Shown piece by piece: positions 536-31,495 of a DNA stretch of 32,863 nt; within the stretch, counting starts at the first letter, position 1; the number at the start of each line of letters is the position of its first letter. Source of the DNA: a virus (lineage: Duplodnaviria > Heunggongvirae > Uroviricota > Caudoviricetes); the IMG/VR virus record IMGVR_UViG_2700989508_000029. One strand, 5' to 3'. The notes beneath the pieces are model-generated. The model did no database searches, was not told where the DNA came from, and worked only from the letters and a program-made list of their open reading frames with translations. Made by a program: the position numbers and the translations under genes.

Positions 536-556
536 AATGGTGCCGATAATAGGAGT
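536..556. repeat. Distal att site: 21-bp exact copy of the thrW 3' end (ptwF-like pseudo-tRNA fragment)
   Basis: AATGGTGCCGATAATAGGAGT is identical to 31418-31438, which lies inside thrW. The two copies are in the same orientation. Confidence 0.9.
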
Positions 557-611
557 AAAACACTCGATTAATCTCGTGTTAATGCCATCACCTACGACCA
601 TTACTAATTGA

Positions 612-1976
612 TTGAATCTTATAGAAAAATCATCATTTTCTATGCGTCACAATCAATTTTCACATTACAAACGCTCCGACACTTTAGCCGGAGATTTTAT
701 GAGATACAAGCCTAACCAATACTTAATCTGTGATTCTTACGGTAACTACTATTTGAGGATCACGTTGCCTGTGTATATGCAGCCCTTTTTTGAAGGAAAA
801 AGGACGTTTGTCAGGAGTCTACATACAAGTAATCTTCGTGTTGCACGTAGAAAGCGTGATCAGATTGCAGATGAATACCATTGTCTACGGGAGAGTGTCG
901 CCCCTGTAAACAGCACAATAGAGAACACGCTGGAGCTGTTACGCAGTAAGGCTAAATACGCCAAAACAGCTACCAGAATGCAAGATACAGCGTCTTCGTG
1001 TCCGTCATTGCTTAAAATTCTTGAAATCTACCTGACAATTAACAGCACGAAGAAGAAGCCAGCCACTTTAGCTAAGGCAAGAAAAGCGGTAGAGATGTTT
1101 CTCTCCTACCGTAAAAAGCCTGATATTGCATTGCAAGATGTGAGCCGCACCACTGTTACAGGCTGGATTGAACACATGCAAAAAACCCTTTCACAACAAT
1201 CAATTGCAAATTATATCAGCCCAATGGCCCAGCTATGGGAGTTAGCTTCATCACGTTACCACGATGCGCCAGAAAGGGCGCTCTCCCCCTGGCGAGGGCA
1301 TAGGCTTGATGTGGCACAAAGTAGAGAGAGCTATGAGGCATTTTCTAACAAAGAGCTATTGCAGGTGTTGCAAGTATTTTCCGGTAATTCAGCAGAAAAC
1401 AAAGAAATGATGGCTTTGTGTCTTATCGGTGCTTATACAGGTATGCGGATCAATGAGATAGCAAGTCTCACAATAGACGATGTGAAAGAGATCGAAGGTG
1501 TGCTGTGTTTTGAAATCACACAGGGAAAAACGAAAGCTGCGGCGCGTGTTGTTCCTGTACATAGCCTTATCACTCCATTGGTGTTATCTCTTCGTGAAAA
1601 GCCTCACAATGGCTTTTTGTTCTATCACGCCAGCATTACAGAGCGTGCTGACGGTAAACGCTCTACGTGGCATACACAACGATTTACAAGAGCTAAACGA
1701 AAGGCTTTAGGGGAAAAGGGAACAGAAAGGAAGGTGTTTCATTCTCTGAGACACGGAGTAGCACAGCTTCTTGATCGAAATCAAATTCCAGAAGACAGGA
1801 TCGCCCTTCTCCTGGGCCATACACGCGGCAATACAGAGACATTCCGCACATATAGCAAGAATGCAGCTTCTCCAGTAGAGCTTAAAAAATATATTGAGCT
1901 TCTACGCTACCCTGAAATAGAGAAAGGCTTATCAATCAATAAAAAATCAAATTTAAGGCGTAAAACAACGCCATAG
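612..1976 (+). CDS. Tyrosine recombinase/integrase (IntF-like by position)
   Basis: Catalytic signature is present: GMRINEI (Arg), KTKAAARVVPVH (Lys), HSLRH (His-x-x-Arg), LLGH and RTYSK (Tyr). The gene starts just inside the att copy and reads into the element. The track start is TTG; the ATGs at 642 or 699 (MRYKPNQYL...) are more likely true starts. Confidence 0.85.
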   Translation: MNLIEKSSFSMRHNQFSHYKRSDTLAGDFMRYKPNQYLICDSYGNYYLRITLPVYMQPFFEGKRTFVRSLHTSNLRVARRKRDQIADEYHCLRESVAPVNSTIENTLELLRSKAKYAKTATRMQDTASSCPSLLKILEIYLTINSTKKKPATLAKARKAVEMFLSYRKKPDIALQDVSRTTVTGWIEHMQKTLSQQSIANYISPMAQLWELASSRYHDAPERALSPWRGHRLDVAQSRESYEAFSNKELLQVLQVFSGNSAENKEMMALCLIGAYTGMRINEIASLTIDDVKEIEGVLCFEITQGKTKAAARVVPVHSLITPLVLSLREKPHNGFLFYHASITERADGKRSTWHTQRFTRAKRKALGEKGTERKVFHSLRHGVAQLLDRNQIPEDRIALLLGHTRGNTETFRTYSKNAASPVELKKYIELLRYPEIEKGLSINKKSNLRRKTTP

Positions 1977-1983
1977 ACGCAAT

Positions 1984-2015
1984 AAAGAGGCTTCAACATA
2001 ATTGGTAGCCTCTTT
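1984..2015. terminator. Bidirectional rho-independent terminator between convergent int and tail genes
   Basis: AAAGAGGCT-N14-AGCCTCTTT hairpin with T-rich sequence on both strands. Confidence 0.6.
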
Positions 2016-2056
2016 TATAATTACATCGTTACAGAGCGTTTTAGAGGCATTTACGG

Positions 2057-2770
2057 CTATTCCTGTTTAAAGGCAGGAGTAATAGTGTCTTCACCTTCAC
2101 TACTTGATTTTTCAGTGTTAACACGTTTTTTCATATTAGCCCCAATGTTCTTAGATGGCTGTGTTTTGAGAGCTACAGTGTTTACAGTGCCATAAGAAAC
2201 TAATCTGATTTGTTCAAAGCTAAGATCAAATACCAGAGATTCGCTTGCCTCTTCTGTGTATTCGATGCCTGTTAAAACAACGTTCTCAAAAGTTTTATTT
2301 TCTGTAACAAGAAGAAAAGGCTGTCTACTGTCCATAATCTGATTCAGGTAATCAATAGCTAATGATCTTCTGTTCCCGTTCACCCCTGCACTCTTTAACA
2401 AGCCAGGATCGCTTTTAATCGGTGTTTCAGTGATCCTTCCTTTAAGAGAAAACTTATTGTTTTTAATTTGAACGTGATCAGACACAGTAGCACCATTTTC
2501 TACGGGGTAGCTTGTAACATCTGCCGAACGTCTCACGTTCACATCGTCAACACTATCAAAGGCCAGTGCCATATAATTTTCATAAACGTCATTGCCAGAA
2601 GATGCCAAGCCACTGGTAACAATAGCAAATCCATTTTCGCCTTTTGTTGTATTAGCTTTGCTATTTTCGTTTTTTGTAGAGTTTATATCTTGTTCTGCTT
2701 TGTAAACAGCCTGAACGTGTTGTTCTGGAGTATTTGCTGCACGTATGGTTAAAATCCCGGCGGTCGCCAT
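2057..2770 (-). CDS. Phage tail/baseplate protein with Dit-like N-terminal domain (237 aa)
   Basis: The segment VTSYPVENGATVSDHVQ...LKGRITE...AIDYLNQIM...LVTE..FENVVLTGIEY...LVFDLSFEQIRLV matches the pattern I associate with Dit-like/baseplate proteins encoded just after tape-measure genes. It lies directly downstream of the TMP-like ORF. Confidence 0.45.
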   Translation of the reverse strand: MATAGILTIRAANTPEQHVQAVYKAEQDINSTKNENSKANTTKGENGFAIVTSGLASSGNDVYENYMALAFDSVDDVNVRRSADVTSYPVENGATVSDHVQIKNNKFSLKGRITETPIKSDPGLLKSAGVNGNRRSLAIDYLNQIMDSRQPFLLVTENKTFENVVLTGIEYTEEASESLVFDLSFEQIRLVSYGTVNTVALKTQPSKNIGANMKKRVNTEKSSSEGEDTITPAFKQE

Positions 2771-2804
2771 AATAATAATTTTCCTTGTAATGTTATGGCG
2801 GGAA

Positions 2805-4634
2805 TTACCCGCCGTTAGATTGTCCTGATAAGCTGGTTAATGTTAATGATTTCAAGAAGCTATCCCGACTTGCTCTCGCTGTAAAATCCACATAATCGCT
2901 TAATCTTGATGTGTCAGAATTAATAGTAAGAGGAACCTCCGTTACCACTTCAAAGGTTGGATTTATATTAAACACAGGAGATAAATTATAAGCTGGAGTT
3001 GTCATTGCAAGATTATTTAAAGCACCCTGTTTGAGATTGGTTATCGGTGCTTCGCTGACTGACATTTTTACATCTGACACAGAAGAAGCATTATCATCGA
3101 AAAGCAATCCCTTAATCGTGTTAAAGAGAGAATGACTATTATCAGGTGCAGTTGTTGCAGTTCCAGCGCCTTTATATTGGTCAGGAACGAGATTAGAAAG
3201 ATGCTGTTTCATCCCTTCATTGCTTAATGGCGGTGCATCACCTAAATTTTTCTGAATAGCATCTGTCTTATCATCATTACGATTAAACCAGTTTACAATC
3301 TTCATAATAGCCTCAAAGAGACTTCCTACAGCTTCTCCCAGCTTCGTAAAATACGGAGTGAGATTAGAAAGGTTTTTCATAAACTCTTCCGTTACTTTTG
3401 GATCGAGAGATTTCATAAAGCCGTCTACGAATGCTACTTGTCTTGCATCAGAAAGCTGTGAAAGCTGTCTGTTTAGTTCTCTGAATTTAACGATAGATTC
3501 TTGCTGTGTTTCTGTTAGCCATTTTCCAGAGGCTTTTTGCTGATTAATACTTTCTTGTACATCTTTAACGGAACGTTGCCAATATTTTGACGTAAGCATC
3601 AAATCATCGCCCAGGTCTTCTAAACGTTGTCCAATTTGGGAGTCTGAAAACCCTTTTTTCATCATTCCATTAACAGCCTTAGAAATTAATCCGGCTGGAT
3701 TATCAGCAAATTTTTTAAGGTCGCTTTTGTTAATAACACCGATGTTTAGAAGTTCATTAATAGCATTATCACCGCCTTTCCATTCAGATTTTCCTTTCTT
3801 GTCTTTCAAGAATTCAGCTTCACTGTAGGATTTTGCGGCACGTTCCCTAACATCTTTCATCTGATCCAGGTATTTCCTAGCCCCTTGATCACCCATCATA
3901 GAGTCAACGCCGTTTCTATAGGCCCATTCTGTAATGTTGTACATCTGGTTAACGTCTACACCGCCCAGCTTGGCCCGTTGAATTAGCTCCCCTTGCGTCT
4001 CTGCGTTAGCGAAGCTGTTAGCCATAAATTCAGAGGTTTTACTAACAGCCATCACGCCAGCGGCAGCCGTAGCGCCTCCAAATAACAGAGCGCCCATCGT
4101 GGCGGAATTCCCTGATCCTCCCTTAACGGGGGCTAATTGAGTTTTTCTATTGCCATTAATCTTACGTTGTTGTTGTTGTAAGCGTTTCATTTGGCTATTC
4201 ATACGTGCAAGCGAGATAGCGCCTTGTTCGTATTGTTTCGCTATCTCTCTAGCCTGTGCAATAGCTTTGTATTGTTCCGCTACAGAGAGGCGGTGCATTG
4301 CACTTATAGAGCTTGACACATCAAGGAGTTTTAATTCTGCTTTCTCCTTACGTGCTGCTATTTGTTGCTGTTGCCTTGCCTGTGCTCTTGCTGCGGCAGC
4401 TTGTGCTCTTTGATTCTGTTTTTCGGTTTTAGCTTTCTGTTGAGCAATCTTGTCTACTTCGTTTTGTGCTTTCTTATAGCCTTTAGTGACATTATCAAAT
4501 CTTAATTTAGCTGGCTTGATGTTTTCTGCGAATTCCTTTAAGCCTGTAATAGAGTCTTTCGCTTTTTTCAAGCTGTCTTTATCTACACTAAATGTTACTG
4601 TGTTCTTAATTTTAGAAGTGTTAATTTCTAACAT
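2805..4634 (-). CDS. Tape-measure-like protein (609 aa)
   Basis: It has an N-terminal Q/A/K-rich coiled coil, a Gly/Ala hydrophobic stretch (ALLFGGATAAAGVMAV) and a long alpha-helical repeat-like body. An SD (aaggggatttt) precedes the ATG. It sits upstream of the Dit-like gene. Confidence 0.55.
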   Translation of the reverse strand: MLEINTSKIKNTVTFSVDKDSLKKAKDSITGLKEFAENIKPAKLRFDNVTKGYKKAQNEVDKIAQQKAKTEKQNQRAQAAAARAQARQQQQIAARKEKAELKLLDVSSSISAMHRLSVAEQYKAIAQAREIAKQYEQGAISLARMNSQMKRLQQQQRKINGNRKTQLAPVKGGSGNSATMGALLFGGATAAAGVMAVSKTSEFMANSFANAETQGELIQRAKLGGVDVNQMYNITEWAYRNGVDSMMGDQGARKYLDQMKDVRERAAKSYSEAEFLKDKKGKSEWKGGDNAINELLNIGVINKSDLKKFADNPAGLISKAVNGMMKKGFSDSQIGQRLEDLGDDLMLTSKYWQRSVKDVQESINQQKASGKWLTETQQESIVKFRELNRQLSQLSDARQVAFVDGFMKSLDPKVTEEFMKNLSNLTPYFTKLGEAVGSLFEAIMKIVNWFNRNDDKTDAIQKNLGDAPPLSNEGMKQHLSNLVPDQYKGAGTATTAPDNSHSLFNTIKGLLFDDNASSVSDVKMSVSEAPITNLKQGALNNLAMTTPAYNLSPVFNINPTFEVVTEVPLTINSDTSRLSDYVDFTARASRDSFLKSLTLTSLSGQSNGG

Positions 4635-4648
4635 TTAAAATCCCCTTA

Positions 4649-4852
4649 TTAATCATTTTTATCACCTTCTTTACTTAAGAAATGGTGTAGAGCCTGATCA
4701 ATACTCTCGTTTAATCTGAACATACGGGCTTTTACTCCTTCATATGGAACATCTAGGAGAGAACAGAGATATTTCAGATTTAACAAGCCTCTAGAATCAT
4801 TAGCATCTAAATGTACGTGTACACCATTTTTTGATTTCAAAATCACTTCCAT
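4649..4852 (-). CDS. Hypothetical small protein (67 aa) between capsid and tape-measure genes
   Basis: ORF with an SD (gagaggtgatt) upstream, in an operon with the TMP-like gene. No recognisable motif. Confidence 0.45.
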   Translation of the reverse strand: MEVILKSKNGVHVHLDANDSRGLLNLKYLCSLLDVPYEGVKARMFRLNESIDQALHHFLSKEGDKND

Positions 4853-4874
4853 ATTTTAATCACCTCTCAAAATT

Positions 4875-4918
4875 TAAAAAAATAAAAAAAAAGGCGAAGC
4901 GTGAATACACGCCACGCC
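4875..4918 (-). terminator. Strong rho-independent terminator/attenuator immediately after the major capsid gene
   Basis: On the minus strand, a GGCGTGGCGTG-TATT-CACGCTTCGCC hairpin is followed by a T9AT7 run. Confidence 0.65.
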
Positions 4919-4936
4919 TCTATTACACGTTAAATA

Positions 4937-5965
4937 TTATTTAACAGTGATTTGAACGGAGAAGCCTACACCGTGGTTTACAACCATCTGGCTATTCTCT
5001 GTAACAACGTTAACAGCATCACCACGAGAAGATTCATAGCTATAGCTATACACCTCAGCAGGAGCGGCATTGATCAGTTCAAAAGTGCTGGAAGCAGCCC
5101 CGTAGATGTTCTGATATACATTAGAGCCTTTAGCAAACTTCGGAATCGCAACCGCATCAGAAGTCATATGTGCAAGGTGTAGCGGATCTACCAGTTTAAC
5201 AACATCAATGTTAGTTCCTGGGATAGTGAACGCTGTCACCCCTGGCAGCAGGTCACGACGCTGATACACAACGTTCCCCTCTTCCAGTGGGCTTACATAC
5301 TGGAATGCGTTTGCCATACCAGCAGAGAATCGAATTGCGGAGAAGGCTTCAGGTTTACAGAAAACAACAATACGCTCTACAGCAGACGCCTGGCTTTGTG
5401 CTTTCTCGATAATGTCAGTAGCAATCTGATCAAATTCTTTAAAAATCTTCGTGGTGTCAGTGCTGGAAGCGTTCACAGTGGCTTTCATAGCTGATACGTT
5501 AAACAGCTTGCCCCATTCGATAAGAACATCATCAGTTTTCGGTGTATAAGTTTTGCCCGAGAACAAAGAAGCAGCCAATACGCTCTCTTTTGTACGCTGA
5601 TACGCTACGTGGTGTTTAGCGATATATTCCGCATAAATATCAGTGAGTGTTTCCTGGAAATCAGTGCCAGGTTTACGTTTGCCTTGAACATCAGAAGGAC
5701 GGATCACATCTTCACGCAGGAAGTAAGGGATCTCGATCAGCCATTCTTTACCTTGTTCTCGCTTAGTAACATTGTGTTCAGAACTAAAACGGCTTGTCTC
5801 TTTGTTAAAGAGAGATTCGTTGCTTTCGACAAGCTGGGAAACAGCTACTTTATGAGATGTAACCCCTACAGAATCCGTAAAATCAAGAGTAGAGAGCAGG
5901 AAGTTACGCGTGCTGTGTGTCTGGAACAGAGGGATCAAATCAACGTAATCATTGCCTAGAATCAT
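4937..5965 (-). CDS. Major capsid protein, lambda gpE-like (Phage_cap_E-type), 342 aa
   Basis: Its length is close to lambda gpE (341 aa). The family-like segment is IPYFLREDVIRPSDVQGKRKPGT...YQRTKESVLAASLFSGK...LIEWGKLF. It is directly preceded by a decoration-like gene, as in the lambda D-E order. Confidence 0.65.
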   Translation of the reverse strand: MILGNDYVDLIPLFQTHSTRNFLLSTLDFTDSVGVTSHKVAVSQLVESNESLFNKETSRFSSEHNVTKREQGKEWLIEIPYFLREDVIRPSDVQGKRKPGTDFQETLTDIYAEYIAKHHVAYQRTKESVLAASLFSGKTYTPKTDDVLIEWGKLFNVSAMKATVNASSTDTTKIFKEFDQIATDIIEKAQSQASAVERIVVFCKPEAFSAIRFSAGMANAFQYVSPLEEGNVVYQRRDLLPGVTAFTIPGTNIDVVKLVDPLHLAHMTSDAVAIPKFAKGSNVYQNIYGAASSTFELINAAPAEVYSYSYESSRGDAVNVVTENSQMVVNHGVGFSVQITVK

Positions 5966-5983
5966 TTATTATTATTCCTTTTA

Positions 5984-6346
5984 TTAAGAAGTGAAAACAG
6001 AATGGAACCCTTCAAGCTGGAAGCCTTTTTTAATTAATGCTGTTTTTGCTGCTTCACTTACAGCATTCAGCGCATCAGCTTTGATGCATACAAGCCCAGC
6101 ATTGCTACGTAAAACATCTACAGGTTTGTTTTCTCCAGCCGTTACAAATTCACTCATAACAACATAGATATCATCTCCTGATACATATTTAGCGCCAGTG
6201 CTGGTGATCAAGTCGCCGCATTCAACATCAGCAGGAAGAGAAGCAAAAACCTTGCTTTCTACAGAGGCAAACGGATCAGTACAATAACTTACAATATCTG
6301 TGAAAGTCTTTCGAACTGGAAACAGAGTGTCTAAATCAATAATCAT
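5984..6346 (-). CDS. Head decoration protein-like (lambda gpD-position), 120 aa
   Basis: The size and the position immediately upstream of the E-like capsid gene fit. Its ATG overlaps the stop of the upstream ORF (ATGA). Confidence 0.45.
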   Translation of the reverse strand: MIIDLDTLFPVRKTFTDIVSYCTDPFASVESKVFASLPADVECGDLITSTGAKYVSGDDIYVVMSEFVTAGENKPVDVLRSNAGLVCIKADALNAVSEAAKTALIKKGFQLEGFHSVFTS

Positions 6347-6555
6347 TTAGTAATCTCCTTAGCTTTTAATTTGATTAATTCATTAAGGGAAGGTGTAGAC
6401 GGAGAAGAAGGAGAAAAATATTTTTCAACACATCTTTCTACTTCTTCTACAGAACACCCAGCGTATTTAGCTACCATTTCGGTAATTTGTGGATTTATTT
6501 TCAGCATTTCATCTTTATACTTGATGATTTGCTCTTTATCATTTAAGAACAACAT
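6343..6555 (-). CDS. Hypothetical protein (70 aa), first gene of the structural operon
   Basis: Translationally coupled (ATGA) to the decoration-like gene. No motif recognised. Confidence 0.45.
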   Translation of the reverse strand: MLFLNDKEQIIKYKDEMLKINPQITEMVAKYAGCSVEEVERCVEKYFSPSSPSTPSLNELIKLKAKEITK

Positions 6556-6617
6556 TTATATAAACCTTGTTACCTTGTTTAAAGTAAGAAATACAACTTT
6601 TAAGTTGCATAACGGGC

Positions 6618-6649
6618 AAAATAAAAGGCAGCATTTAGAGCCGCCTTTT
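6618..6649 (-). terminator. Rho-independent terminator separating the early and structural operons
   Basis: On the minus strand, the GGCGGC-UCUAAAU-GCUGCC hairpin has a G-U pair that is valid only on that strand, followed by UUUUAUUUU. Confidence 0.55.
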
Positions 6650-6678
6650 ATTAACTTGTACCTATGTAATTACCCTAT

Positions 6679-6708
6679 GTTATGCATACTCCAAGATGTA
6701 TGCATAAC
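6679..6708. promoter_or_regulatory. Operator-like perfect inverted repeat GTTATGCATA-N10-TATGCATAAC upstream of the structural operon
   Basis: 10-bp perfect arms. A third half-site, TTGCATAAC, lies at 6605-6613, nearer the operon start. Confidence 0.45.
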
Positions 6709-6904
6709 AAAGGAAAAAAGAGGTAATAATGACACAGTATTTACTTAAGGAGGAGAAGCGGGGAGCGGAGATTTTACTCCCCTTTAACGACAAGAAGAAT
6801 TTTTAATATCGAACCAATAAAGGAAAAATAATCACCCCATATAATTATATTAACATATAATAGATGGAATGTCAAGATATTTTACAACTTTTTTGTTGCT
6901 TTTT

Positions 6905-7267
6905 TTATTCTTCTGTGATAGTGCCTAAGCGTTGAGCGAGTTCGACAAGTCCATCTCCCACATAGCGAACATCAGATTCGATATCTTCTATCCAGTTTGA
7001 TAGCTCCCATATCTGATCGGCTGTCAGGTATGCGTTTTCGCGCTTACAGAGCATCTCTACACGCTTAGAGAGGTGCTCAAAGGCATTCACAGCTAAATCC
7101 CAGTGTTTAAACGCCTCATTTAGTGACGCTGGTGTGTTTTCTTTGTATGCTTCAAGTTCAGCGCGGTTTAAAGGCAGAAGGTAATCATCCTCATAATAAT
7201 TAATTAGTGAGTAAATTGTGTCATACGTGTTTTTGTTCATATTAAAAGTCTCCATAGTGATCAGCAT
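6905..7267 (-). CDS. Hypothetical protein (up to 120 aa; likely start at 7240 or 7255)
   Basis: The ORF is adjacent to the upstream gene's stop at 7242-7244. A GGAGA SD precedes the ATG at 7240. Confidence 0.45.
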   Translation of the reverse strand: MLITMETFNMNKNTYDTIYSLINYYEDDYLLPLNRAELEAYKENTPASLNEAFKHWDLAVNAFEHLSKRVEMLCKRENAYLTADQIWELSNWIEDIESDVRYVGDGLVELAQRLGTITEE

Positions 7268-7652
7268 TATCTAGAATCTGGAAGTCTGGAACTAAGTTAT
7301 TTAGGCCATTTGTGGCGAGATAACCAACGTAGTGGTTATAGTCTTCAAATCCTAAAATCTGGTATTTGCGTAAATCAGAGCTATCAACGATATACTCTTT
7401 TCTTTTTCTAGGTTTCCAGAATACGCCAGGTGTTGAAGATAAGATTTCTTGTAAGGCGTTAAATTCATCTCCGCAAGGCACAGAGGGAGAATGTTCTATG
7501 ATCTCTGTTTTCCATTCGCCAGGGGCGCTATTTTGCTTGGTGAGCGTAACTAGCTCTTTAAAGTCTTTGCGTCTTAGAATAGATTTAGGTTTACTTAGAA
7601 GAGAAGCTGAATCCCCGATTTTCTTAACAACGTTGTTTTTTCTTTTTGCCAT
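7242..7652 (-). CDS. Hypothetical protein with basic N-terminus (136 aa)
   Basis: ATG at 7652 with an AAGGAAA SD. The N-terminus is MAKRKNNVVKK. No family recognised. Confidence 0.45.
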   Translation of the reverse strand: MAKRKNNVVKKIGDSASLLSKPKSILRRKDFKELVTLTKQNSAPGEWKTEIIEHSPSVPCGDEFNALQEILSSTPGVFWKPRKRKEYIVDSSDLRKYQILGFEDYNHYVGYLATNGLNNLVPDFQILDNADHYGDF

Positions 7653-7784
7653 TATTTACTTTTCCTTTTCTTTTAAAGGAAAACACCCCGAAGTATGTTT
7701 CTAACGTGAGAAAGAACAATAACCAATACATAGCTACTATCATAATAATGTTTTCCTTTTATATTTTAATTACATAGAGAGATT

Positions 7785-8063
7785 TTAGAGAGTGGAATAG
7801 ATGAATTCTATTTCTTTATCTAGTCTTTTGAGATTGAATGTAGAGAAAGATAATTCTTTAATTTCTATAACACCGAAGTTTGATAGCTGTTTCAGCCAGA
7901 ATTTTAAACCATCTTCAGAGCACCCTGCTCGATGTAACACATCGCTATATTTTAGCGGTGTTGGCTTTCCTTTATAGAGGTAAGCAAGTGTTTCGTAGAT
8001 GCGTTTTCCTGTGTCGTTACACTGAATTCTGTCTACTTGATTTTTTACTAAATATTGAATCAT
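7785..8063 (-). CDS. Small putative winged-helix DNA-binding protein (92 aa)
   Basis: A strong SD (AAGGAGGG) precedes the ATG at 8063. The sequence looks wHTH-like. Confidence 0.45.
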   Translation of the reverse strand: MIQYLVKNQVDRIQCNDTGKRIYETLAYLYKGKPTPLKYSDVLHRAGCSEDGLKFWLKQLSNFGVIEIKELSFSTFNLKRLDKEIEFIYSTL

Positions 8064-8074
8064 AACCCTCCTTA

Positions 8075-8767: not shown

Positions 8768-8820
8768 TAAAAATCTCCTTGATGTAATCACGCTCTATGG
8801 CGCTACTATGGTGATAAAAA

Positions 8821-8991
8821 TCACTTGCTTTTATTTGAGAGTGTTTCAGCCTCTCTTTTCAACATATCAAGAATGTAATCTGTGACAGTGATCCGTCTAC
8901 TTCTGGCTTCTTTAAATAACACCTGAAATACTTCATCAGGAATATGAAAGCAAGTGCGTGGTTGTCTTTTCTTTTCTGTAGTTTCGCTCAT
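8821..8991 (-). CDS. Ribbon-helix-helix (CopG/Arc-like) protein (56 aa from MSETT)
   Basis: AAGGAG SD before the ATG at 8991. RTCFHIPDEVFQVLFKEARSRRITVTDYILDML fits a beta-alpha-alpha RHH pattern. Confidence 0.5.
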   Translation of the reverse strand: MSETTEKKRQPRTCFHIPDEVFQVLFKEARSRRITVTDYILDMLKREAETLSNKSK

Positions 8992-9010
8992 AGTTTTCTC
9001 CTTCTCTTCT

Positions 9011-9199: not shown

Positions 9200-9310
9200 A
9201 AAAAACTCCTTATTCAGTTAAAAGAAAAAACACCTTGCAAGCCTGACGGCTTCAAAGTGCATTGATTTTGATTATTTAGAGAAGAATGTTTTTCTGTCCC
9301 TCTAATACCT

Positions 9311-24935: not shown

Positions 24936-25290
24936 CGTACCCCACGTGGTCTATAGCGTTTGCGATATGGCTAACCAGCATCTGCCACTTGGTTATTCCG
25001 TAATCAGTCAGCATGCCATCATTGTTTAGCCACATATCAAATTCAGCGGTTGTCGCAAGTTTCCACTTATCGCCGTGGACAGTCCTCATTGCTGGGTACA
25101 TGAATGCGCAAATCAGATCACAAACATCTGACGGCTTCAGAGATGTAGTAATGGTGCGTCCCTCTGGCGTCTGAATTGCCATTTTCTCTTCACCAGTAGA
25201 ATGAAGGTTATGAATCCACACAGCACCAGCAATCTTTGCCACCTGCTCTCCGATTGCGGAGCTAAGCGCCATTTCTGCATTTTCACGCAT
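24919..25290 (-). CDS. Hypothetical protein (123 aa), early operon
   Basis: It overlaps both neighbours (coupled translation). It shares a weak YP...DG.LTD.G..W motif with the ORF upstream. Confidence 0.55.
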   Translation of the reverse strand: MRENAEMALSSAIGEQVAKIAGAVWIHNLHSTGEEKMAIQTPEGRTITTSLKPSDVCDLICAFMYPAMRTVHGDKWKLATTAEFDMWLNNDGMLTDYGITKWQMLVSHIANAIDHVGYGDAKH

Positions 25291-25624
25291 GAGAACCTCC
25301 CGCTACAGTTGCGCCCATGTCATTAACCATGCTTTGCCATATCTCACGCCCGACGTCAGTCAATCCGTCCTTAGTGACGCAACGCTCAAGAAGCTCGATC
25401 CCCACGGTTTCCCACTGCGGGTAGAACACTTTCATGGCTGCCAGTGTGTAGCTATCGATCAGGCTGCGAACGCCTTTTACTCCATTGACGATTTCCACAC
25501 GTACGGCCTCGCCGTCCGCATCAACCATGAAATAGTCCCCGCCGCTGGTGGAGGTAATGTGGTTATACAGTGCCGACGCATACTTATTTGCCAGCGCATT
25601 CAGTCGGAAATTTTTAGTAATCAT
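25283..25624 (-). CDS. Hypothetical protein (113 aa), early operon
   Basis: Coupled ORF. No family recognised. Confidence 0.55.
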   Translation of the reverse strand: MITKNFRLNALANKYASALYNHITSTSGGDYFMVDADGEAVRVEIVNGVKGVRSLIDSYTLAAMKVFYPQWETVGIELLERCVTKDGLTDVGREIWQSMVNDMGATVAGGSHA

Positions 25625-25634
25625 GGCTCCATCC

Positions 25635-26237
25635 TCAGTGCGTCACTGGTTCCGCTGGCATGCCGTTTTCATTCAGTTCAGCTATAAAGCTGTTGTGAAG
25701 TTCAGCAAGCGTTTCACGACCAAATGGAGTCAGTGCTCCTTGTTCCACATCCATCATGGCTCTGTAGAAAATGATGGCGCGTTCTGTGCCAGACTCGATG
25801 CCAAAACGTTCTATCATCGCGCCCTCAATGTTGTTTGCCATAGCGAGGCGCTCTGCTACTGGATACAGCGGCATGGCGACGATGCCGTTGGAATAAACAG
25901 CCACTTCGGAAGGATTGCCAGTATCATCAATGATGCTGACAGTGCCGTTTTCCTCTCTCATTTCCAGCATGAATACTGTTGCGATCAGCCATCTCCACAT
26001 AATGACGTTATGCTGTGATGTGTAATCGAAATATCCCTGGTTGCCGCCATCGGCTATAGCGAGATGTATTGACATGCCTTCATCTGGTTTATCGTCATAA
26101 TCCCCGGCATCCAGACGATTTACGGCATCAATATATGAGACGGTCTCAACGCGTTCTGTCATGCCATCGTTGCTGCGGTGCATGATGTTTACGCCGTCAG
26201 GCGTTGCTTCTGCATGGAAAGTTAAGAAATTATTCAT
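25635..26237 (-). CDS. Hypothetical protein (200 aa from MNNFLTF)
   Basis: The ATG at 26237 overlaps the upstream stop (ATGAATAA). The track ORF extends to 26342 in overlap with the upstream gene. Confidence 0.5.
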   Translation of the reverse strand: MNNFLTFHAEATPDGVNIMHRSNDGMTERVETVSYIDAVNRLDAGDYDDKPDEGMSIHLAIADGGNQGYFDYTSQHNVIMWRWLIATVFMLEMREENGTVSIIDDTGNPSEVAVYSNGIVAMPLYPVAERLAMANNIEGAMIERFGIESGTERAIIFYRAMMDVEQGALTPFGRETLAELHNSFIAELNENGMPAEPVTH

Positions 26238-26451
26238 GTTTCGCCTCGCCTGAATGATTCTGTAACTCATATTTGCCCAACAATTCGTCTGCTTCCTGAA
26301 TAGCTTCTGGTACGCCATTGAGCAGTGACATAACCGCGCCAATCATTAACTTGTCTCTGTTGCTGGGGCTGGCCCCTTCAAGCCAGAACCCTAAAACAGT
26401 CTGAACCTGTTCGATGCGACATTGCGCTTCAATGAGCTGGATGTTGGTCAT
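26230..26451 (-). CDS. Hypothetical protein (73 aa)
   Basis: 4-nt overlap with the upstream ORF. Confidence 0.5.
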   Translation of the reverse strand: MTNIQLIEAQCRIEQVQTVLGFWLEGASPSNRDKLMIGAVMSLLNGVPEAIQEADELLGKYELQNHSGEAKHE

Positions 26452-26711
26452 TTCGCACTCTCCGCATCGATTAAACTGATATCTATCAGAGAGGTAACTT
26501 TTTGTAGCCAGCTAGTGATTACTGTCGCCCGTTCCCCTCCCACCGATGGAAGAATCTCATTCATCACATGAACCAGACCTGTGCGCGCTCTGGTAAGCCG
26601 TTCAGTCGTGCGATCTGCAAGAGTGAATGTGTCTGGATATGGCTCTTCACGGCTCAGCAATGATTCAATTCCCAGCTCACACGGATGACGATAAATTAAG
26701 TTGATATTCAT
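26448..26711 (-). CDS. Hypothetical protein (87 aa)
   Basis: 4-nt overlap with the upstream ORF. Confidence 0.5.
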   Translation of the reverse strand: MNINLIYRHPCELGIESLLSREEPYPDTFTLADRTTERLTRARTGLVHVMNEILPSVGGERATVITSWLQKVTSLIDISLIDAESAK

Positions 26712-26902
26712 TTTTCACCCCCAAGAATTACCAGCTCTGCACGGGCATCGTTAACCAAAGATGAGCACGCTTTAATCGCATCCACGACATCAGTAGCGTC
26801 CATTTCTTCAGCCGAAAGACTGACAGCAACCAGGACAGCCGCTGCTTGCTCGATTAATTGAAGTGCGGACGTAAGGCGAGGGGTATTAATTGAGTTATTC
26901 AT
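26708..26902 (-). CDS. Hypothetical protein (64 aa)
   Basis: 8-nt overlap with the upstream ORF. Confidence 0.5.
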   Translation of the reverse strand: MNNSINTPRLTSALQLIEQAAAVLVAVSLSAEEMDATDVVDAIKACSSLVNDARAELVILGGEK

Positions 26903-27113
26903 TGGTTTCCCCCGTTTTTACTGGCATTTCGCCACCTTCCAGCAGGAAATGAACGTCACGAACGGCGAGATCCAATATCGCGAGTAACGCCTTCAGTCTT
27001 TCGTCTCGTGAGGGAGAGTTGCTCACCAGAATGTCGTTAATCACTTCTGTCAGTGTGATGATCTGGCTTGTGCGTTCGAGGGGATCCATATGCACATCGT
27101 AGGTTTTAATCAT
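26895..27113 (-). CDS. Hypothetical protein (72 aa from MIKTYDV); C-terminal part of the 355-aa track ORF
   Basis: The internal ATG at 27113 overlaps the stop of the Icd-like ORF by 8 nt, the same coupling pattern seen in the rest of the operon. Confidence 0.4.
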   Translation of the reverse strand: MIKTYDVHMDPLERTSQIITLTEVINDILVSNSPSRDERLKALLAILDLAVRDVHFLLEGGEMPVKTGETNE

Positions 27114-27300
27114 GTGCCACCTCCATGCGGATACGACCAGCAAAAAAGCAGACGTGATCGCGCACCAGAGAACGGCGAGCATCGCGTTCAGACTCGGCAG
27201 CAATATGATGAATTTTGGCGGTAATTGTCGGGCAATCGCGGCGAACTGCGGCGATAATCCAGATAAATTGCGGTTTTTGGGTAGGGGTAGTAGCCAGCAT
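27106..27300 (-). CDS. Host cell division inhibitor Icd-like protein (64 aa from MLATTP)
   Basis: MLATTPTQKPQFIWIIAAVRR...AESERDARRSLVRDHVCFFAGRI matches the Icd-like pattern I recall from P1/P4-type immunity regions. It is embedded in another frame of the 355-aa ORF. Confidence 0.5.
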   Translation of the reverse strand: MLATTPTQKPQFIWIIAAVRRDCPTITAKIHHIAAESERDARRSLVRDHVCFFAGRIRMEVAHD

Positions 27301-27319
27301 GTGGCAGCCTCCATTCGAT

Positions 27320-27440
27320 AGCATGTAACGCTACCACCGGAAACGCCAATTTCGCTGGTGGTAGCCCAGACAGGGTTGGCGTAACCGGCTCGAATGGATA
27401 CCGGCGCTTCCGAAGAAGCCCCTGCCTGAGCCACCATTGA
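27320..27440 (-). ncRNA. Candidate C4/CI-type antisense immunity RNA upstream of the Icd-like ORF
   Basis: Minus-strand hairpins: GGCTTC-TTCG-GAAG(C)GCC, CCGG-N12-CCGG, and a 9-bp stem GCTACCACC-N18-GGTGGTAGC. In P1 and P4 the c4/CI RNA lies just upstream of icd-like sequences. Confidence 0.3.
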
Positions 27441-27962
27441 TTGACAAAGGCGCTGGATTATACACCAACGCCCAAAAAATGGGTGAGTCAGACCTACGAC
27501 ATAAAAAAAGACGCTCGGCGCGTCATATGTCGCCATTCGATTTACCAGGACGCCAATCCCGGCACCCGTTTTATGAGGTGCCTTATAACCATAAACCGTG
27601 TTGCCGCATAACGGCAAGCTCTTTTTTATGGACTCCGAAAACTCGCTATTGGAAGCACCAGATGCACAGTACATCGCGCTCATTTCGTTAACGTCACGCA
27701 CGTGGACGAATGTTTTTGTGGAGTCACTACACGAGCGGAAGACATCATCTACGACCAGAAATTTTCTGGCGCAGCCGCTGACCTTCTCAATGCTAATATC
27801 ATCGCCCGAGATTTCTGACATAGTTAAGGCATCCGCTCCTACCACCAGCAAATGATAAACTTTGCTTGTATCTGCTGTATTAATGCCTGACTTTGCTGTC
27901 ATATTGCTGGATTTTGGCGACATACCAGCCAGTGAAAATGTCTTCTTCTGGGCGGTTAGCAT
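27326..27962 (-). CDS. N-terminal/central part of the 355-aa read-through ORF (ash-family-like sequence); coding status uncertain
   Basis: The ATG at 27962 is coupled to the upstream stop (ATGCTAA). The stretch KTGAGIGV...[30 protein letters not shown] resembles ORFs annotated as ash family. There is no in-frame stop until 26895, so the 3' end given here is nominal. Confidence 0.35.
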
Positions 27963-28138
27963 TTGTTAACCTCCGCGAACTCCTTCATGAAACGTGCCAG
28001 CGGTTGTACGCATGGCGATTGATACCCGTCGCGATAAAACGTCACTCGGTTGTGAGACACGCTTTCGACAGTAACGAGTGCTCCGTGGGCATCTTTGTAG
28101 CGTTTTTGAGGTTGTGGTGTTCCTGTCGGCTTAAACAT
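27956..28138 (-). CDS. DUF4222-like small protein (60 aa from MFKPTG)
   Basis: KDAHGALVTVESVSHNRVTFYRDGYQSPCVQPLARFMKEF fits the DUF4222 pattern I recall. The ATG at 28138 overlaps the antirepressor stop by 8 nt. Confidence 0.5.
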   Translation of the reverse strand: MFKPTGTPQPQKRYKDAHGALVTVESVSHNRVTFYRDGYQSPCVQPLARFMKEFAEVNKC

Positions 28139-28964
28139 GGACCGCCTCCAGACGCTTAGCGAGCCAGCGTTGCGACAGGCGGGTGAGTTCTCCTTTGCGC
28201 TGCTCATATTCCATGCCCATATCAATTAACGTGATATTGGTGCTTTCGAGATATGAGAGGTGCTCAAGCTGTTCTGCGTTCATATGGTCGCGAGGTTCGC
28301 CAGAATAGCCATTTATCCGCGCCCACTGCTTAGCAGTTAGCCCACCAAGAACGATACGAGAAATCATATTGCTCTCGTTTGTGTAGTGGTGTTGCTGCGT
28401 CGTTTTCCCCATCTCGGCACGGGCCATATTCAGCGCATCGCACATTGGCTTAAAGTTGTTTGCGGCACTGATACGGGCTTTTAGCTGGCGACGATAGCGG
28501 GCGGCGATTTCAGGCACGCTACGCTGTAATTCTTCCTCGCACTGGATGAAATAACGGCGGATAGCGCGCCCCTGATCATTGCGTTCGATCATTGCCAGTT
28601 CTTTCGCCATTCCGACACTTAACAGATAGTCTTTGCCGGGTCTTCCAGACTGCTTAATCTTGCTGTAAGCCGCGCCATTCGGGCTTTTCCCCAAATTTGG
28701 GGAAATTGTTTTATGGACTGAGTAATCGTGCCCAATGGTGAAGTCATATTCAGAGATGCGATCAGTGATCCATGTAGAGAAGTCTTTTCCCACGCCCAAC
28801 GCTTTGTGTAACGCTTTTGCGCTAACAATATTGGTTTCACGCCCACCGATATGACCAGGAATAACCGGGACAATTGCGGCAAATTCATTACCGTTAATTG
28901 TGCCCAGAGAGGCGTTCAGATGAGGGGCGGCCTCAGAAATTAATCTGCTTTTTTCGATGTTCAT
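28131..28964 (-). CDS. Phage antirepressor (AntA/AntB-type domain), 277 aa
   Basis: VSAKALHKALGVGKDFSTWITDRI...DYLLSVGMAKELAMIERNDQGRAIRRYFIQCEEEL is typical of AntA/AntB antirepressor domains. Confidence 0.7.
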   Translation of the reverse strand: MNIEKSRLISEAAPHLNASLGTINGNEFAAIVPVIPGHIGGRETNIVSAKALHKALGVGKDFSTWITDRISEYDFTIGHDYSVHKTISPNLGKSPNGAAYSKIKQSGRPGKDYLLSVGMAKELAMIERNDQGRAIRRYFIQCEEELQRSVPEIAARYRRQLKARISAANNFKPMCDALNMARAEMGKTTQQHHYTNESNMISRIVLGGLTAKQWARINGYSGEPRDHMNAEQLEHLSYLESTNITLIDMGMEYEQRKGELTRLSQRWLAKRLEAVHV

Positions 28965-28976
28965 TTTCAGTCTCCG

Positions 28977-29408
28977 TTAGGCGGCGTTAAACGCGTCCGG
29001 GTAGAGTTTCAGAATGTCGGCAATTTCCTGCTGAGAAAGTCCGTTGTGATCATTTATGTTCGCAAGATGGTTAATATGAGTGATCACTTTCAGAACATCA
29101 CCACGGCAGGAGAAACGGTAGCGAAGGTGTGTTCCGATACCATCAGGATTCTTTTCGTCGATACGCTCCAGAGTGATTCCAAGCTGGCGTTCTAACTCTG
29201 TTGCATAGTTACGACCAGAAGACAGACGGCAGTAGCGAAGAATGTCATTTTCTGTCCATCCCTCTATACCAGTACGCAGCATATAGACTCTGGCACGATG
29301 CTTTTTCGGTGTGCGCTTTGGTGCTTGAAGGGATTTTGTAAGGGGCGTAACATCAGATACACGAATATCTGAATTAGCCGCCTGTAATGGGCGGTTTTTC
29401 TTTTCCAT
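28977..29408 (-). CDS. Hypothetical protein (143 aa)
   Basis: The ATG shares one nucleotide with the alpA stop (TGATG). No family recognised. Confidence 0.5.
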   Translation of the reverse strand: MEKKNRPLQAANSDIRVSDVTPLTKSLQAPKRTPKKHRARVYMLRTGIEGWTENDILRYCRLSSGRNYATELERQLGITLERIDEKNPDGIGTHLRYRFSCRGDVLKVITHINHLANINDHNGLSQQEIADILKLYPDAFNAA

Positions 29409-29611
29409 CAAGCCACCTCGTCTCTAGATTCTAATATACACTTCTCAATCCATTCATCTATTTCAGACTCAACAAAAGCAATTGCCCGACTTCCAATTTT
29501 TACCTGTTTAGGGAACCTCCCCTGACTAATAAGACGATAAATCCATGCTTTGCTATAACCAGTTCGCCTTTGAACTTCAGAGAGACGAATTAATGAATTG
29601 TAATTAGCCAT
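29408..29611 (-). CDS. alpA: AlpA/Vis-family excisionase-type transcriptional regulator (67 aa)
   Basis: LIRLSEVQRRTGYSKAWIYRLISQGRFPKQVKIGSRAIAFVESEIDEWI is a canonical AlpA-family HTH. It lies next to a P4-type integrase. Confidence 0.85.
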   Translation of the reverse strand: MANYNSLIRLSEVQRRTGYSKAWIYRLISQGRFPKQVKIGSRAIAFVESEIDEWIEKCILESRDEVA

Positions 29612-29833
29612 TTATTAATATCCTGTACTAATGACGCAATAACTCCCTCCTGCAACGAATGGCGAGAGTTTTATTTGCGTCAAATGTCGAATACGCCAAA
29701 GACCACAATATGAAAAACATATTGCGGTCTTTTATAAAAGATAGTCAGATTGTTTTGGTTTGTTTGCTCCACAAGGGTAGAGCTACCCTGCATTTCGGCA
29801 GGATCACGCTATTAGGCGTGACATCCAGTAGTT

Positions 29834-29896
29834 TTAAAGAACAATTGCGCTTTGTCAGCGCCAAAGCCTGTTAAAGAACATTCCGCTTTGTCAGCG
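29834..29896. repeat. Two direct repeats TTAAAGAACAwTkCGCTTTGTCAGCG between alpA and int
   Basis: Copies at 29834-29860 and 29871-29896 (37-bp period) in the int-alpA intergenic region. Confidence 0.5.
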
Positions 29897-30039
29897 ACGT
29901 AGAAGGCTCAATACACCTTCGTTTATAAAAGAGCGATTGCCCTTCTCCAGGGCTAACTGTTAAATAGCAATCCTCTGTGAGTTTTTATCAATCTACTCCC
30001 CTATACTTTAGTAAACCTCTGTATACTTGTCCAGTTGTT

Positions 30040-31254
30040 TCATGCGTGTTTTTCAAACACCATATGCACCACATTTCCGCCATGCTCGAGAGAATCCATA
30101 TAGTCGGCATACCATTGAAGCATCTCCCGCCTTCCATCCAGATATTGCGCATGGTTGTATGTGCCACGAATTGAGTTCTTATCAACGTGAGCGAGCTGCG
30201 TTTCTATCCACGCGGTGTTATAGCCCTGCTCATGCAAAATCGTACTCATAGTGTGCCGGAACCCATGACCAGTTACACGTCCAGCGTAGCCAATGCGCTT
30301 AAACACTTGGTTTATGCTGGCCTCGCTCATTGTTTTCCTTGGATCATTGCGCCCGGGAAACATAAGAGGGTAATTGCCTGTTATTTCTCTAATCTTCCCA
30401 ATAAGCGAAAGAGCCTGCTCAGACAATGGCACAATATGAGTCCGCCGCATTTTCATACGTGAAGCGGGTATCTCCCAGATAGCCTTGTTGAAATCAATTT
30501 CATCCCATAATGCGCCACGTAGTTCGCCAGTCCGCAAGCCGGTGATAATCAGTAGACGAGCCGCCATAACAACCAATGCGCTTCCTGAGTAACTGGACAA
30601 TGCCTTGAAAAAATCAGGTAATTCTTTGGCTGTAAGGAAAGGGTAATGATTAGATTCATGGCCTTGCATCGCGCTAGTAAGGTCTGGTGCAGGGTTATAC
30701 TCTGCGCGACCAGTGACTATTGCATAGCGGAAAACTTCCCCGCACCGTTGCCTCACTTTTTTGGCTTTTTCTGTAGCACCGCGCCCCTCGATGCGACGCA
30801 GCACATTCAGAAGTTCAAGTGGTTTGATTTCGGCGATGGGTTTTTTGCCAATGTAAGGGAACACATCTTTGTTGAAGGCTTCGAGGATGTCTGAAGCATA
30901 ACCAGCAGACCATTTTTTTAATTTGCTGCTGTGCCACTCAAGGGCAATATCTTTGAAGGTGTTGTTTAACTGCGTTTCCCGGGCAATCTTTTCCTCTCGT
31001 TTCGCTTCCATCGGATCGATACCACCAGCGATACCTCTTTTCGCATCTTCACGTTTTGCCCGAGCATCGGCTAGAGTAACCTCAGGATAAACACCTAGTG
31101 CCAATAGCTTCTCTTTACCAGCTACACGATATTTAAGTCGCCAGTATTTACCTCCATTAGGTTTTACCAAGAGATACAAACCGCCACCATCGGCCAGCTT
31201 GTAAGCCTTCTCTTTTGGCTTGGCTGTGTCTATTTGACGGGCATTGAGTTTCAC
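30040..31254 (-). CDS. P4-family tyrosine integrase (404 aa, GTG start)
   Basis: The N-terminus KLNARQIDTAKPKEKAYKLADGGGLYLLVKPNGGKYWRLKYR is the DUF4102/P4-int signature. C-terminal motifs are GLRTGELRG, HGFRH and IRGTYNH. It lies immediately downstream of thrW in the same direction. Confidence 0.92.
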   Translation of the reverse strand: MKLNARQIDTAKPKEKAYKLADGGGLYLLVKPNGGKYWRLKYRVAGKEKLLALGVYPEVTLADARAKREDAKRGIAGGIDPMEAKREEKIARETQLNNTFKDIALEWHSSKLKKWSAGYASDILEAFNKDVFPYIGKKPIAEIKPLELLNVLRRIEGRGATEKAKKVRQRCGEVFRYAIVTGRAEYNPAPDLTSAMQGHESNHYPFLTAKELPDFFKALSSYSGSALVVMAARLLIITGLRTGELRGALWDEIDFNKAIWEIPASRMKMRRTHIVPLSEQALSLIGKIREITGNYPLMFPGRNDPRKTMSEASINQVFKRIGYAGRVTGHGFRHTMSTILHEQGYNTAWIETQLAHVDKNSIRGTYNHAQYLDGRREMLQWYADYMDSLEHGGNVVHMVFEKHA

Positions 31255-31286
31255 TTGGGGGTACCTCCACTAAACCGAACAGCAAA

Positions 31287-31402
31287 TACCCCCATAAGTA
31301 CCCCCATCTGACCGTAGATTTTGAGGGACTTTAGTAGACGTCAAAAGACGAACGGGGCTTTAATACGCGGATTATAAGGGGTTTTGAAAGACTTTAGTAG
31401 AC
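31287..31402. promoter_or_regulatory. attL arm region: TACCCCCATAAGTACCCCCA plus two TTTTGArrGACTTTAGTAGAC direct repeats
   Basis: The TACCCCCA pair is at 31287-31306. GACTTTAGTAGAC occurs at 31327-31339 and 31390-31402. All lie between the int start and the tRNA. Confidence 0.45.
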
Positions 31403-31419
31403 TTGGGGAGATGTTTGAA

Positions 31420-31495
31420 TGGTGCCGATAATAGGAGTCGAACCTACGACCTTCGCATTACGAATGCGCTGCTCTACCAACTGAGCTATATCGGC
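31420..31495 (-). tRNA. thrW: tRNA-Thr (anticodon CGU)
   Basis: The reverse complement reads GCCGATATAGCTCAGTTGGTAGAGCAGCGCATTCGTAATGCGAAGGTCGTAGGTTCGACTCCTATTATCGGCACCA. It has a cloverleaf, a TTCGTAA anticodon loop, GGTTCGA in the T-loop and an encoded CCA. It is adjacent to proA, as in E. coli. Confidence 0.95.

Follow-up and report, generated by a model that had tools for sequence, protein, structure and literature searches.

The 32,863 bp stretch of DNA analysed here (IMG/VR virus record IMGVR_UViG_2700989508_000029), hereafter the window, was found by comparison with RefSeq genomes carrying identical regions to correspond to the Escherichia coli interval that runs from paoD and the 3' part of yagP to thrW and proA. 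Two units, E1 (positions 557–12898; 12.3 kb) and E2 (12919–31417; 18.5 kb), lie in tandem between yagP and thrW. The chromosomal flank on the left (1–411, forward strand) is the 3' part of yagP, a LysR-family pseudogene located downstream of paoD, and the flank on the right contains proA (31610–32863, reverse strand), both being recognised from their open reading frames (ORFs) and the RefSeq annotation of the identical regions. The thrW gene, which encodes tRNA-Thr(CGT), is intact (31420–31495, reverse strand; detected by ARAGORN and with an Rfam tRNA score of 71.8 bits).

An earlier note on this DNA had proposed that two unrelated integrative elements are stacked at thrW and delimited by three copies of the tRNA 3' end. 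Each unit was indeed found to lie between direct repeats of this end, at 536–556, 12899–12918 and 31418–31438. The 21-mer AATGGTGCCGATAATAGGAGT, which had been placed at exactly two positions, has two exact copies in the window, at 536–556 and 31418–31438, and no match in dinucleotide shuffles. The first copy forms the tRNA-distal junction between yagP and the int-side arm of E1, and the other, said to be the 3' end of thrW, does overlap the tRNA gene on the reverse strand and forms the junction between the int-side arm of E2 and thrW. Each of these copies contains a candidate 7 bp overlap, ATGGTGC, at 537–543 and 31419–31425, respectively. The middle copy, located between the right arm of E1 and the distal arm of E2, is the 20-mer AATGGTGCGATAATAGGAAC (12899–12918), referred to as core*, which occurs once in the window and not at all in the shuffles, and which differs from the 21-mer in having one C fewer and AC at the end in place of GT. 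This third copy had been reported at 12899–12916 as a decayed one; its presence was borne out, in a fuller form of 20 bp, but its description as decayed was not, as all E2-type elements examined carry this same 20-mer at their distal ends. The ~46 bp of att identity reaching the anticodon loop that is typical of P22, SfV and CP4-6 was not found in the window, the identity ending after 21 bp in the first copy and after 20 bp in the second.

The GC content is 38.4% in E1, 46.8% in E2 and 50–54% in the chromosomal flanks. At 12.9 kb it steps from ~37% to ~43% across the adjacent 2 kb, and the change in base composition noted there previously is therefore real, but it is only moderately sharp.

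Each unit carries one intact tyrosine recombinase gene with a full catalytic domain (Pfam). The E1 integrase of 425 amino acids (aa; 699–1976, forward strand) has DUF6538 and Phage_int_SAM_5 domains in addition to the Phage_integrase catalytic domain and matches PHROG integrase families, and the 404 aa E2 integrase (30040–31254, reverse strand) is P4-type, with Arm-DNA-bind_3 and Phage_int_M domains preceding the catalytic domain. The two share 24% identity and can be aligned only over 176 residues of the catalytic domain, their N-terminal architectures being different, in agreement with the proposal that each half has its own integrase, from a different tyrosine recombinase subfamily, and that both use the same tRNA core. 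The E2 integrase is identical at 403 of 404 positions to IntS_1 of EcCIMP1, a phage-inducible chromosomal island (PICI) in E. coli MP1, and shares 65% identity with the P4-type integrase of Sp2 in the O157:H7 strain Sakai.

Occurrence of E1 and E2 in complete E. coli genomes

Junctions were counted in 5,426 complete E. coli genomes using 200 bp junction queries and requiring at least 80% query coverage. The empty site, in which yagP is joined to thrW, was found in 1,649 genomes, providing the empty locus with which the earlier note had wished the window to be compared, and thrW is occupied in ~70% of the genomes. The junction between yagP and the left arm of E1 was present in 304 genomes, and the right arm of E1 lay directly against thrW in 384. 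For E2, the yagP/core*/E2 junction was found in 342 genomes and the junction of the int arm with thrW in 701. The E1/core*/E2 junction of the window was detected in nine genomes, five of which matched at 99.5% at least, one at 96.5% and three at 89%.

Searches with each half separately recovered both of them alone at thrW. The genome of the O103 strain RM8385 includes positions 1–12916 of the window at 100% and then passes straight into an intact thrW (...gttattgattttcttAATGGTGCCGATAATAGGAGTcgaacc), whereas strain MB49, which carries E2 alone, matches from position 12897 onwards and has E2 joined directly to the yagP flank (ctctttgattttAATGGTGCGATAATAGGAACaaaac). In genomes with E2 alone, the match to the window begins at 12897–12899. 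The opposite order, yagP/core*/E2/perfect core/E1 followed by a third element, was found in MS 85-1, where the int arm of E2, a perfect core and the int arm of E1 form a hybrid junction. E2-type elements also have other partners at thrW, namely a prophage with a 46 bp P22-type site next to E2 in PEC131, and the vat island next to EcCIMP1 in MP1.

As each element occurs alone elsewhere, the site is found empty and the integrases are separate, the proposal of two unrelated integrative elements stacked at thrW is supported. We consider it about 90% probable that the window holds two site-specific integrative elements that are independent of each other and arranged in tandem at the 3' end of thrW. 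The earlier note would have been contradicted if related genomes always carried the 31 kb as one unit without a junction at 12.9 kb, and the opposite was seen, the halves being separable and present in reverse order in MS 85-1.

In the genome of strain 05_3471 (NZ_CP074946.1), the match to the window starts only at position 5483 and the E1/E2 junction is kept. The int-side 5 kb of E1 appears to have been deleted in this strain, leaving an E1 remnant incapable of excision.

The middle repeat and the probable position of strand exchange

The core* sequence is present at the tRNA-distal end of each E2-type element examined, i.e. E2 alone in MB49, E2 in MS 85-1, EcCIMP1 in MP1 and Sp2 in Sakai. 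A five-way alignment, in which three different left neighbours and three different distal arms were represented, gave an invariant block that is exactly the core* 20-mer. The left neighbour can be yagP, E1 or the vat island, and in MP1 it is the int arm of the vat island. As the 20-mer is invariant despite changing left neighbours and distal arms, core* is, judged from the alignment, a conserved part of attP for this clade of P4-type integrases (EcCIMP1/Sp2/E2) and not a product of decay. Absence of the 12899–12916 similarity from relatives had been named as a finding that would count against two stacked elements; instead, the 20-mer is kept in MB49, MS 85-1, MP1 and Sakai.

The single-C form always accompanies an E2-type distal arm and the thrW-side junction always has CC, which places strand exchange to the left of the C/CC difference, since the single C stays with the distal arm and the CC with the thrW side. 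Position 1 of the core is A or G among the int-side arms, and the sequence further left is wholly different. With exchange confined to the left of the C/CC difference and position 1 variable, ATGGTGC remains as the crossover, and we infer that the E2-type integrase exchanges strands within these 7 bp (537–543, 12900–12906 and 31419–31425). Exchange in the second identical block (GATAATAGGA) was also considered, but would move the one-base deletion into thrW, which was never seen.

Read on the tRNA strand, ATGGTGC comprises a single base beyond the gene together with the CCA, the discriminator base and two bases of the acceptor stem. Integration would thus re-supply no more than six bases at the end of the tRNA gene, and thrW would stay intact. 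The other tRNA-like bases at the distal side of attP do not rebuild the tRNA and most likely act as a core-type half-site for the integrase, imitating the half-site that the tRNA provides in attB; the distal half-site of the E2 attP is tRNA-like yet imperfect (C-GATAATAGGAAC). Natural hybrid junctions such as these map the crossover of the EcCIMP1/Sp2-clade integrases to 7 bp and define the predicted attP, which helps in delimiting islands that are often merged in annotation as one 'incomplete prophage'.

Probable arm-type repeats at the ends of E2

A module of 20 nucleotides (nt) at 12979–12998 had been noted to recur at 31287–31306 with one mismatch, and this was confirmed (TACCCCCAAAAGTACCCCCA). 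Its use as a marker of the distal end of E2 at 12.9 kb was also correct. The module consists of two direct copies of the octamer TACCCCCA (starting at 12979 and 12991, forward strand) in the distal (P') arm of E2, 60 nt beyond core*, and is conserved in EcCIMP1. The octamer occurs six times in the window compared with 0.49 expected, and five of the six copies lie within ~165 bp of the two ends of E2. The int-side (P) arm (31256–31306), which is likewise conserved in EcCIMP1, includes an inverted copy (31256–31263) and two direct copies (31287–31294 and 31299–31306), the latter located 112–131 nt before the thrW core.

All five copies of TACCCCCA recur in EcCIMP1 at unchanged spacing, even though the sequence of the 60 nt that separate core* from the module is not the same. 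Across the MP1 locus the octamer was found eight times (0.73 expected), with the copies clustered at the element ends at conserved spacing, and in Sakai Sp2 a different repeat, CTATACACAT, occupies the analogous positions. The E2 integrase has an arm-binding domain (Arm-DNA-bind_3), and the TACCCCCA modules are interpreted as probable arm-type integrase sites that flank the E2 attP, and the E2 attP would consist of core* and five arm-type repeats.

The inverted copy of TACCCCCA at 31256–31263 follows the Shine-Dalgarno sequence of the E2 int gene and precedes its GTG start codon. The same arrangement was seen at the start of int in EcCIMP1 and an analogous one, formed by the different repeat, in Sakai Sp2. 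The position of the inverted repeat suggests that the integrase may repress its own expression.

Two copies of a further sequence, GACTTTAGTAGAC, were found between the arm sites and the core (31327–31339 and 31390–31402, forward strand) and are candidate sites for an accessory factor of the AlpA/Xis or IHF type. GACT-N6-GAC pairs resembling GACTTTAGTAGAC are seen by eye at the equivalent positions of Sakai Sp2. That GACTTTAGTAGAC may bind an accessory factor is a guess. The two arms of E1 share a single 10-mer, GCGTTTGTAA (12833, and inverted at 665), which is too weak to be interpreted as an arm-type repeat.

Proposed formation of the tandem array

In the proposed scheme, each element would integrate by recombination between its own attP and the end of thrW, or the copy of the thrW end left by the other element. 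In EcCIMP1, induction of the P22-like helper phage Kapi1 leads to excision and circularisation of the island, which is transferred in Kapi1 particles, and intS_1 and alpA are required for all three (PMC11773190). By analogy, a P22-like helper phage would induce AlpA of E2, and AlpA together with the integrase would excise E2 through recombination between core* (12899) and the thrW core (31418). The placement of E1 distal and E2 proximal to the tRNA gene is the one to be expected had E2 entered the regenerated thrW site of a chromosome already carrying E1.

If newcomers use the regenerated thrW end, the element nearest the tRNA gene is the newest, which would fit the arrival of E1 first and E2 later in this lineage. 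Copies of E1 identical (100%) to that in the window are found alone in O26 and O103 genomes, and the tandem was seen only in a small number of O26-type genomes. An integrase would find both of its arms only at the ends of the element that encodes it, and E1 and E2 are therefore expected to excise independently and not as a 31 kb composite. The arrival of E2 would also have exchanged the half-site beside the right end of E1 for the one-base-shorter core*, and it is a matter of speculation that this might reduce excision of E1 or lock it in place.

Several points weigh against independent arrival of two mobile elements by this route. The crossover of E1 itself cannot be mapped, as the perfect 21-mer is present at both E1 junctions. 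E1 has no recognisable excisionase, portal or terminase, and may be immobile. Entry of E1 into the distal core* of E2 is an alternative that would yield the same structure, and the array could have passed from one strain to another when the whole locus was replaced by homologous recombination. The junction counts, at a threshold of 80% coverage, include diverged variants of each arm, and a single assembled window cannot reveal the excision product or the circular junction of either element.

The most probable alternative is that homologous recombination between strains, with import of the whole locus via the conserved pao and proAB flanks, was the main means by which the array was put together or disseminated, and not a recent integration in this lineage. 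These flanks are found, conserved, in nearly all E. coli. Copies of E1 or E2 99.9–100% identical to those of the window occur in each of the three states of the locus (E1 alone, E2 alone and tandem), and strains labelled O26 include one with E1 alone (RM8426) and one with the tandem (RM10386). However, spread by homologous recombination leaves the first formation of the hybrid junctions unexplained, and the junction structure is exactly that predicted for exchange at ATGGTGC. We regard this explanation as possible though unlikely for the array as a whole, and it is compatible with site-specific integration of two independent elements if it acted as a later route.

A single composite island of 31 kb that moves as a unit, the middle repeat being an internal relic with no present role, would account for the five O26-type genomes that carry the whole array at 99.9–100% and have evidently inherited it as a block in that lineage. 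Against this, E1 and E2 each occur singly and precisely delimited in hundreds of genomes, and their order is reversed in MS 85-1. The outermost sites are also mismatched for a composite, the first copy having the int-side arm of E1 and the third that of E2, so that neither integrase would have its own two arms for composite excision, and this explanation is very improbable. Equally hard to credit is a middle copy that represents the original chromosomal tRNA end, displaced by a crossover in the T loop and then decayed in place, since, though one deletion and two substitutions relative to the tRNA could look like decay, independent decay to an identical 20-mer at the distal ends of E2 alone, the MS 85-1 E2, EcCIMP1 and Sp2 is implausible, and had exchange taken place on the right of the C/CC difference, the single-C form would lie in thrW, where it was not seen.

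Gene content of E2

Reading from thrW, with all genes on the reverse strand, E2 encodes the integrase, AlpA, an antA-type antirepressor, a DUF4222 protein, ash, small ORFs and a primase, followed by a cassette of DUF2824, gp7, gp20 and gp16-position genes, an Abi_2 protein and PerC. This is the EcCIMP1-type layout, in which int lies beside the att site, alpA is immediately downstream and a primase/replicase gene follows. The predicted AlpA (29408–29611; 67 aa; Pfam Phage_AlpA, E 7e-20) lies directly downstream of int, and the primase/replicase (22176–24935) has Zn-ribbon, Toprim and DUF927 domains (Pfam). Over 12.7 kb (window positions 20121–32863, which include the shared thrW-proA flank), E2 is 97.8% identical at the nucleotide level to the EcCIMP1-thrW-proA region of MP1. 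On the basis of these identities and its gene order, and as it occurs alone at thrW elsewhere, E2 is a new copy or variant of the experimentally characterised EcCIMP1 family of PICIs. It places a copy of a validated satellite, with Abi and PerC-type cargo, in Shiga-toxin-type O26 strains.

The cassette at 16755–21413 is homologous to the DNA-ejection genes of P22 (Pfam), and consists of genes for a DUF2824 protein (20952–21413), a gp7-like protein (20281–20958), an Inj_translocase/gp20-like protein (18860–20281) and a 701 aa protein in the gp16 position (16755–18860). At the DNA level, it matches parts of P22-like phages, among them the helper Kapi1, with 87–95% identity. The carriage of ejection-protein genes by a satellite, in both E2 and EcCIMP1, is unusual, and in EcCIMP1 they have been labelled only as 'DNA transfer' (PMC11773190). 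No Pfam hits to capsid or terminase genes were obtained among the 21 E2 ORFs scanned.

The E2 ORFs scanned also gave no Pfam hit to sid, psu or delta, and as no homologue of these genes was detected E2 is, by its predicted gene content, not P4-like in the strict sense. The earlier description of this half as P4-like holds for the integrase, AlpA and an antisense RNA of the C4/CI family, but not for the whole element, which is of the EcCIMP1 family. The C4/CI-type antisense RNA (27354–27441, reverse strand; 79.5 bits) and an isrK-type RNA (27504–27581, reverse strand; 67.1 bits) both score above the Rfam gathering threshold and both lie within the ORF annotated as 'ash'. Part of the 'ash family protein' ORF may really represent an immunity region of the P4/P1 type that acts through RNA.

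At the distal end of E2, an abortive-infection-like protein (14275–15297, reverse strand; Pfam Abi_2, E 2e-52) is encoded as accessory cargo, together with a PerC-family regulator (13258–13545, reverse strand; Pfam PerC, E 3e-33). The 9-mer GTTGGTTCA is present three times upstream of perC (13582–13608), and its reverse complement occurs three times, with about two more copies, just downstream of the primase gene (22060–22080 and 22124–22150). These two clusters are mutually inverted and 8.5 kb apart within E2.

Gene content of E1

E1, which occurs alone at thrW with exact boundaries, is an uncharacterised integrative element that may be satellite-like or defective. Behind the integrase gene, three structural genes are predicted on the reverse strand, encoding a homologue of Dit-like/tail-tube-initiator proteins (2057–2770; Pfam Dit_like, E 3e-29), a tape-measure-like protein of 609 aa (2805–4634; PHROG 16051, E 1e-54) and a highly divergent major capsid protein of the Phage_cap_E fold family (4937–5965; Pfam, E 1e-14). 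The element also encodes a replication-initiator-like helix-turn-helix (HTH) protein (8075–8791, reverse strand), which matches PHROG replication-initiation families and scores 24.2 bits against Pfam HTH_36, just under the gathering cut-off of 25 bits, and several small unknown proteins. An AT-rich, ORF-poor stretch of 3.5 kb (9036–12600), in which RefSeq annotates one ORF of 52 aa, includes iteron-like tandem repeats between 10420 and 10739, in clusters at 10420–10480, 10527–10625, 10642–10687 and 10700–10739 (Tandem Repeats Finder: 22 bp ×2.8, 23 bp ×2.8, 18 bp ×2.6 and 21 bp ×1.9). The origin of replication on which the neighbouring initiator-like protein would act may lie in this stretch.

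The three structural genes are colinear with the structural module of Justusliebigvirus PHB05, a lytic phi92-like phage of 148 kb in whose record no integrase is annotated. The Dit-like protein shares 62% aa identity with its Justusliebigvirus/Phapecoctavirus counterpart, and parts of the tape-measure-like protein are 32–53% identical to the PHB05 tape measure protein. The best phage relatives of the capsid protein share ~25% identity and none exceeds ~27%, with 21% to the PHB05 major capsid protein. Two short DNA blocks of 46–49 nt (8760–8808 and 11745–11790) are 93–96% identical to non-structural regions of phi92-like phages. The block at 8760–8808, which covers the 5' untranslated region and start of the initiator gene, matches an intergenic/5' region of phage Mt1B1_P17 with 96% identity, and one of the two blocks matches nt 318–363 of the PHB05 record, ~320 nt from its start.

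E1 does not correspond to a known phage or prophage, as no phage record covers more than 1% of its DNA and its capsid relatives do not exceed ~27% identity, and it is unlikely to be a decayed prophage of the phi92-like type. Capsid-forming PICIs are marked by int-alpA together with a full capsid module that includes protease, portal, connectors and small terminase. E1 was rejected as a member of that group, since it has the major capsid protein only, with no Pfam or PHROG hits for alpA, portal, protease or terminase. ORFs of 120 and 67 aa in E1 were considered as homologues of the phage head-decoration and small pre-tape-measure proteins, but no similarity was found. Orthology of the E1 integrase with IntF of K-12 was likewise discarded, as these share 24% identity over 136 residues and CP4-6 uses a 49 bp anticodon-loop site. 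A scan of one-genome-per-species contigs with the E1 integrase returned a single Escherichia locus.

As E1 has its own integrase, an initiator-like gene with iterons, colinear but unequally diverged structural genes and short DNA blocks with 93–96% identity to phi92-like phages, it could conceivably represent an undescribed family of integrative satellites, or an island that interferes with assembly, directed at the large lytic phi92-like myophages (Stephanstirmvirinae). We offer this reading tentatively and think it doubtful as it stands. A literature search found no described satellite of Stephanstirmvirinae. E1 is present in several hundred genomes and is flagged here as uncharacterised; its possible relationship to lytic phi92-like phages is the most novel thread of the analysis and is of interest where lytic phages are considered as antibacterial agents.

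Comparison with other elements at thrW

The thrW gene is among the most frequently used tRNA integration sites (PMC7545054), and tandem prophages have been noted there (PMC9997748). Tandem occupancy of thrW is thus already documented, and the E1/E2 pairing is a further instance of the known stacking of islands at tRNA genes. With thrW among the busiest integration sites in E. coli, the window provides a clean worked example of unit-by-unit build-up.

Sp1 and Sp2 of Sakai are both located at thrW (PMC8190617). They are likewise two unrelated elements in tandem between thrW and yagP, with a copy of the tRNA end between them. Sp1 and Sp2 correspond to CP-933H and CP-933I in EDL933. Sp2 has the same distal core* as E2, but it is the distal element of its pair, has different arm repeats and an unrelated distal arm, and carries genes annotated as P4-type (capsid size determination, polarity suppression, transcription activator and primase). 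Sp1 differs from the elements in the window in being a lambda-like remnant that uses the 46 bp anticodon-loop site.

EcCIMP1, located at thrW between proA and yagU in MP1, shares with E2 the int-alpA-antA-ash-primase-ejection-gene-perC organisation and is also part of a tandem, its partner being the vat island where that of E2 is E1. The distal third differs, E2 having the Abi_2 gene, a different protein in the gp16 position and a different distal-arm sequence. P4 and P4-like elements have in common with E2 a P4-type arm-binding integrase, integration at a tRNA 3' end, a protein of the AlpA/Vis family encoded next to int and an antisense RNA of the C4/CI family. In contrast to P4, E2 has no sid, psu or delta homologue among the proteins scanned, has a replicase of the Toprim and DUF927 type, and carries the P22-type ejection cassette as cargo.

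CP4-6 of K-12 and phages of the P22/SfV type use the same tRNA gene and the same yagP-side boundary as the array in the window. However, the segment they duplicate is ~46–49 bp long and reaches the anticodon loop, compared with the 20–21 bp of the acceptor end for E1 and E2. As other elements at the locus use the 46–49 bp anticodon-loop site, thrW has two integration sites, one nested in the other, and elements of both classes can be combined in one array. The 46–49 bp class is used by the PEC131 prophage, Sakai Sp1 and K-12 CP4-6 (locus extracts L004, positions 30520–30570; L006, positions 17590–17650; L007, positions 9210–9270).

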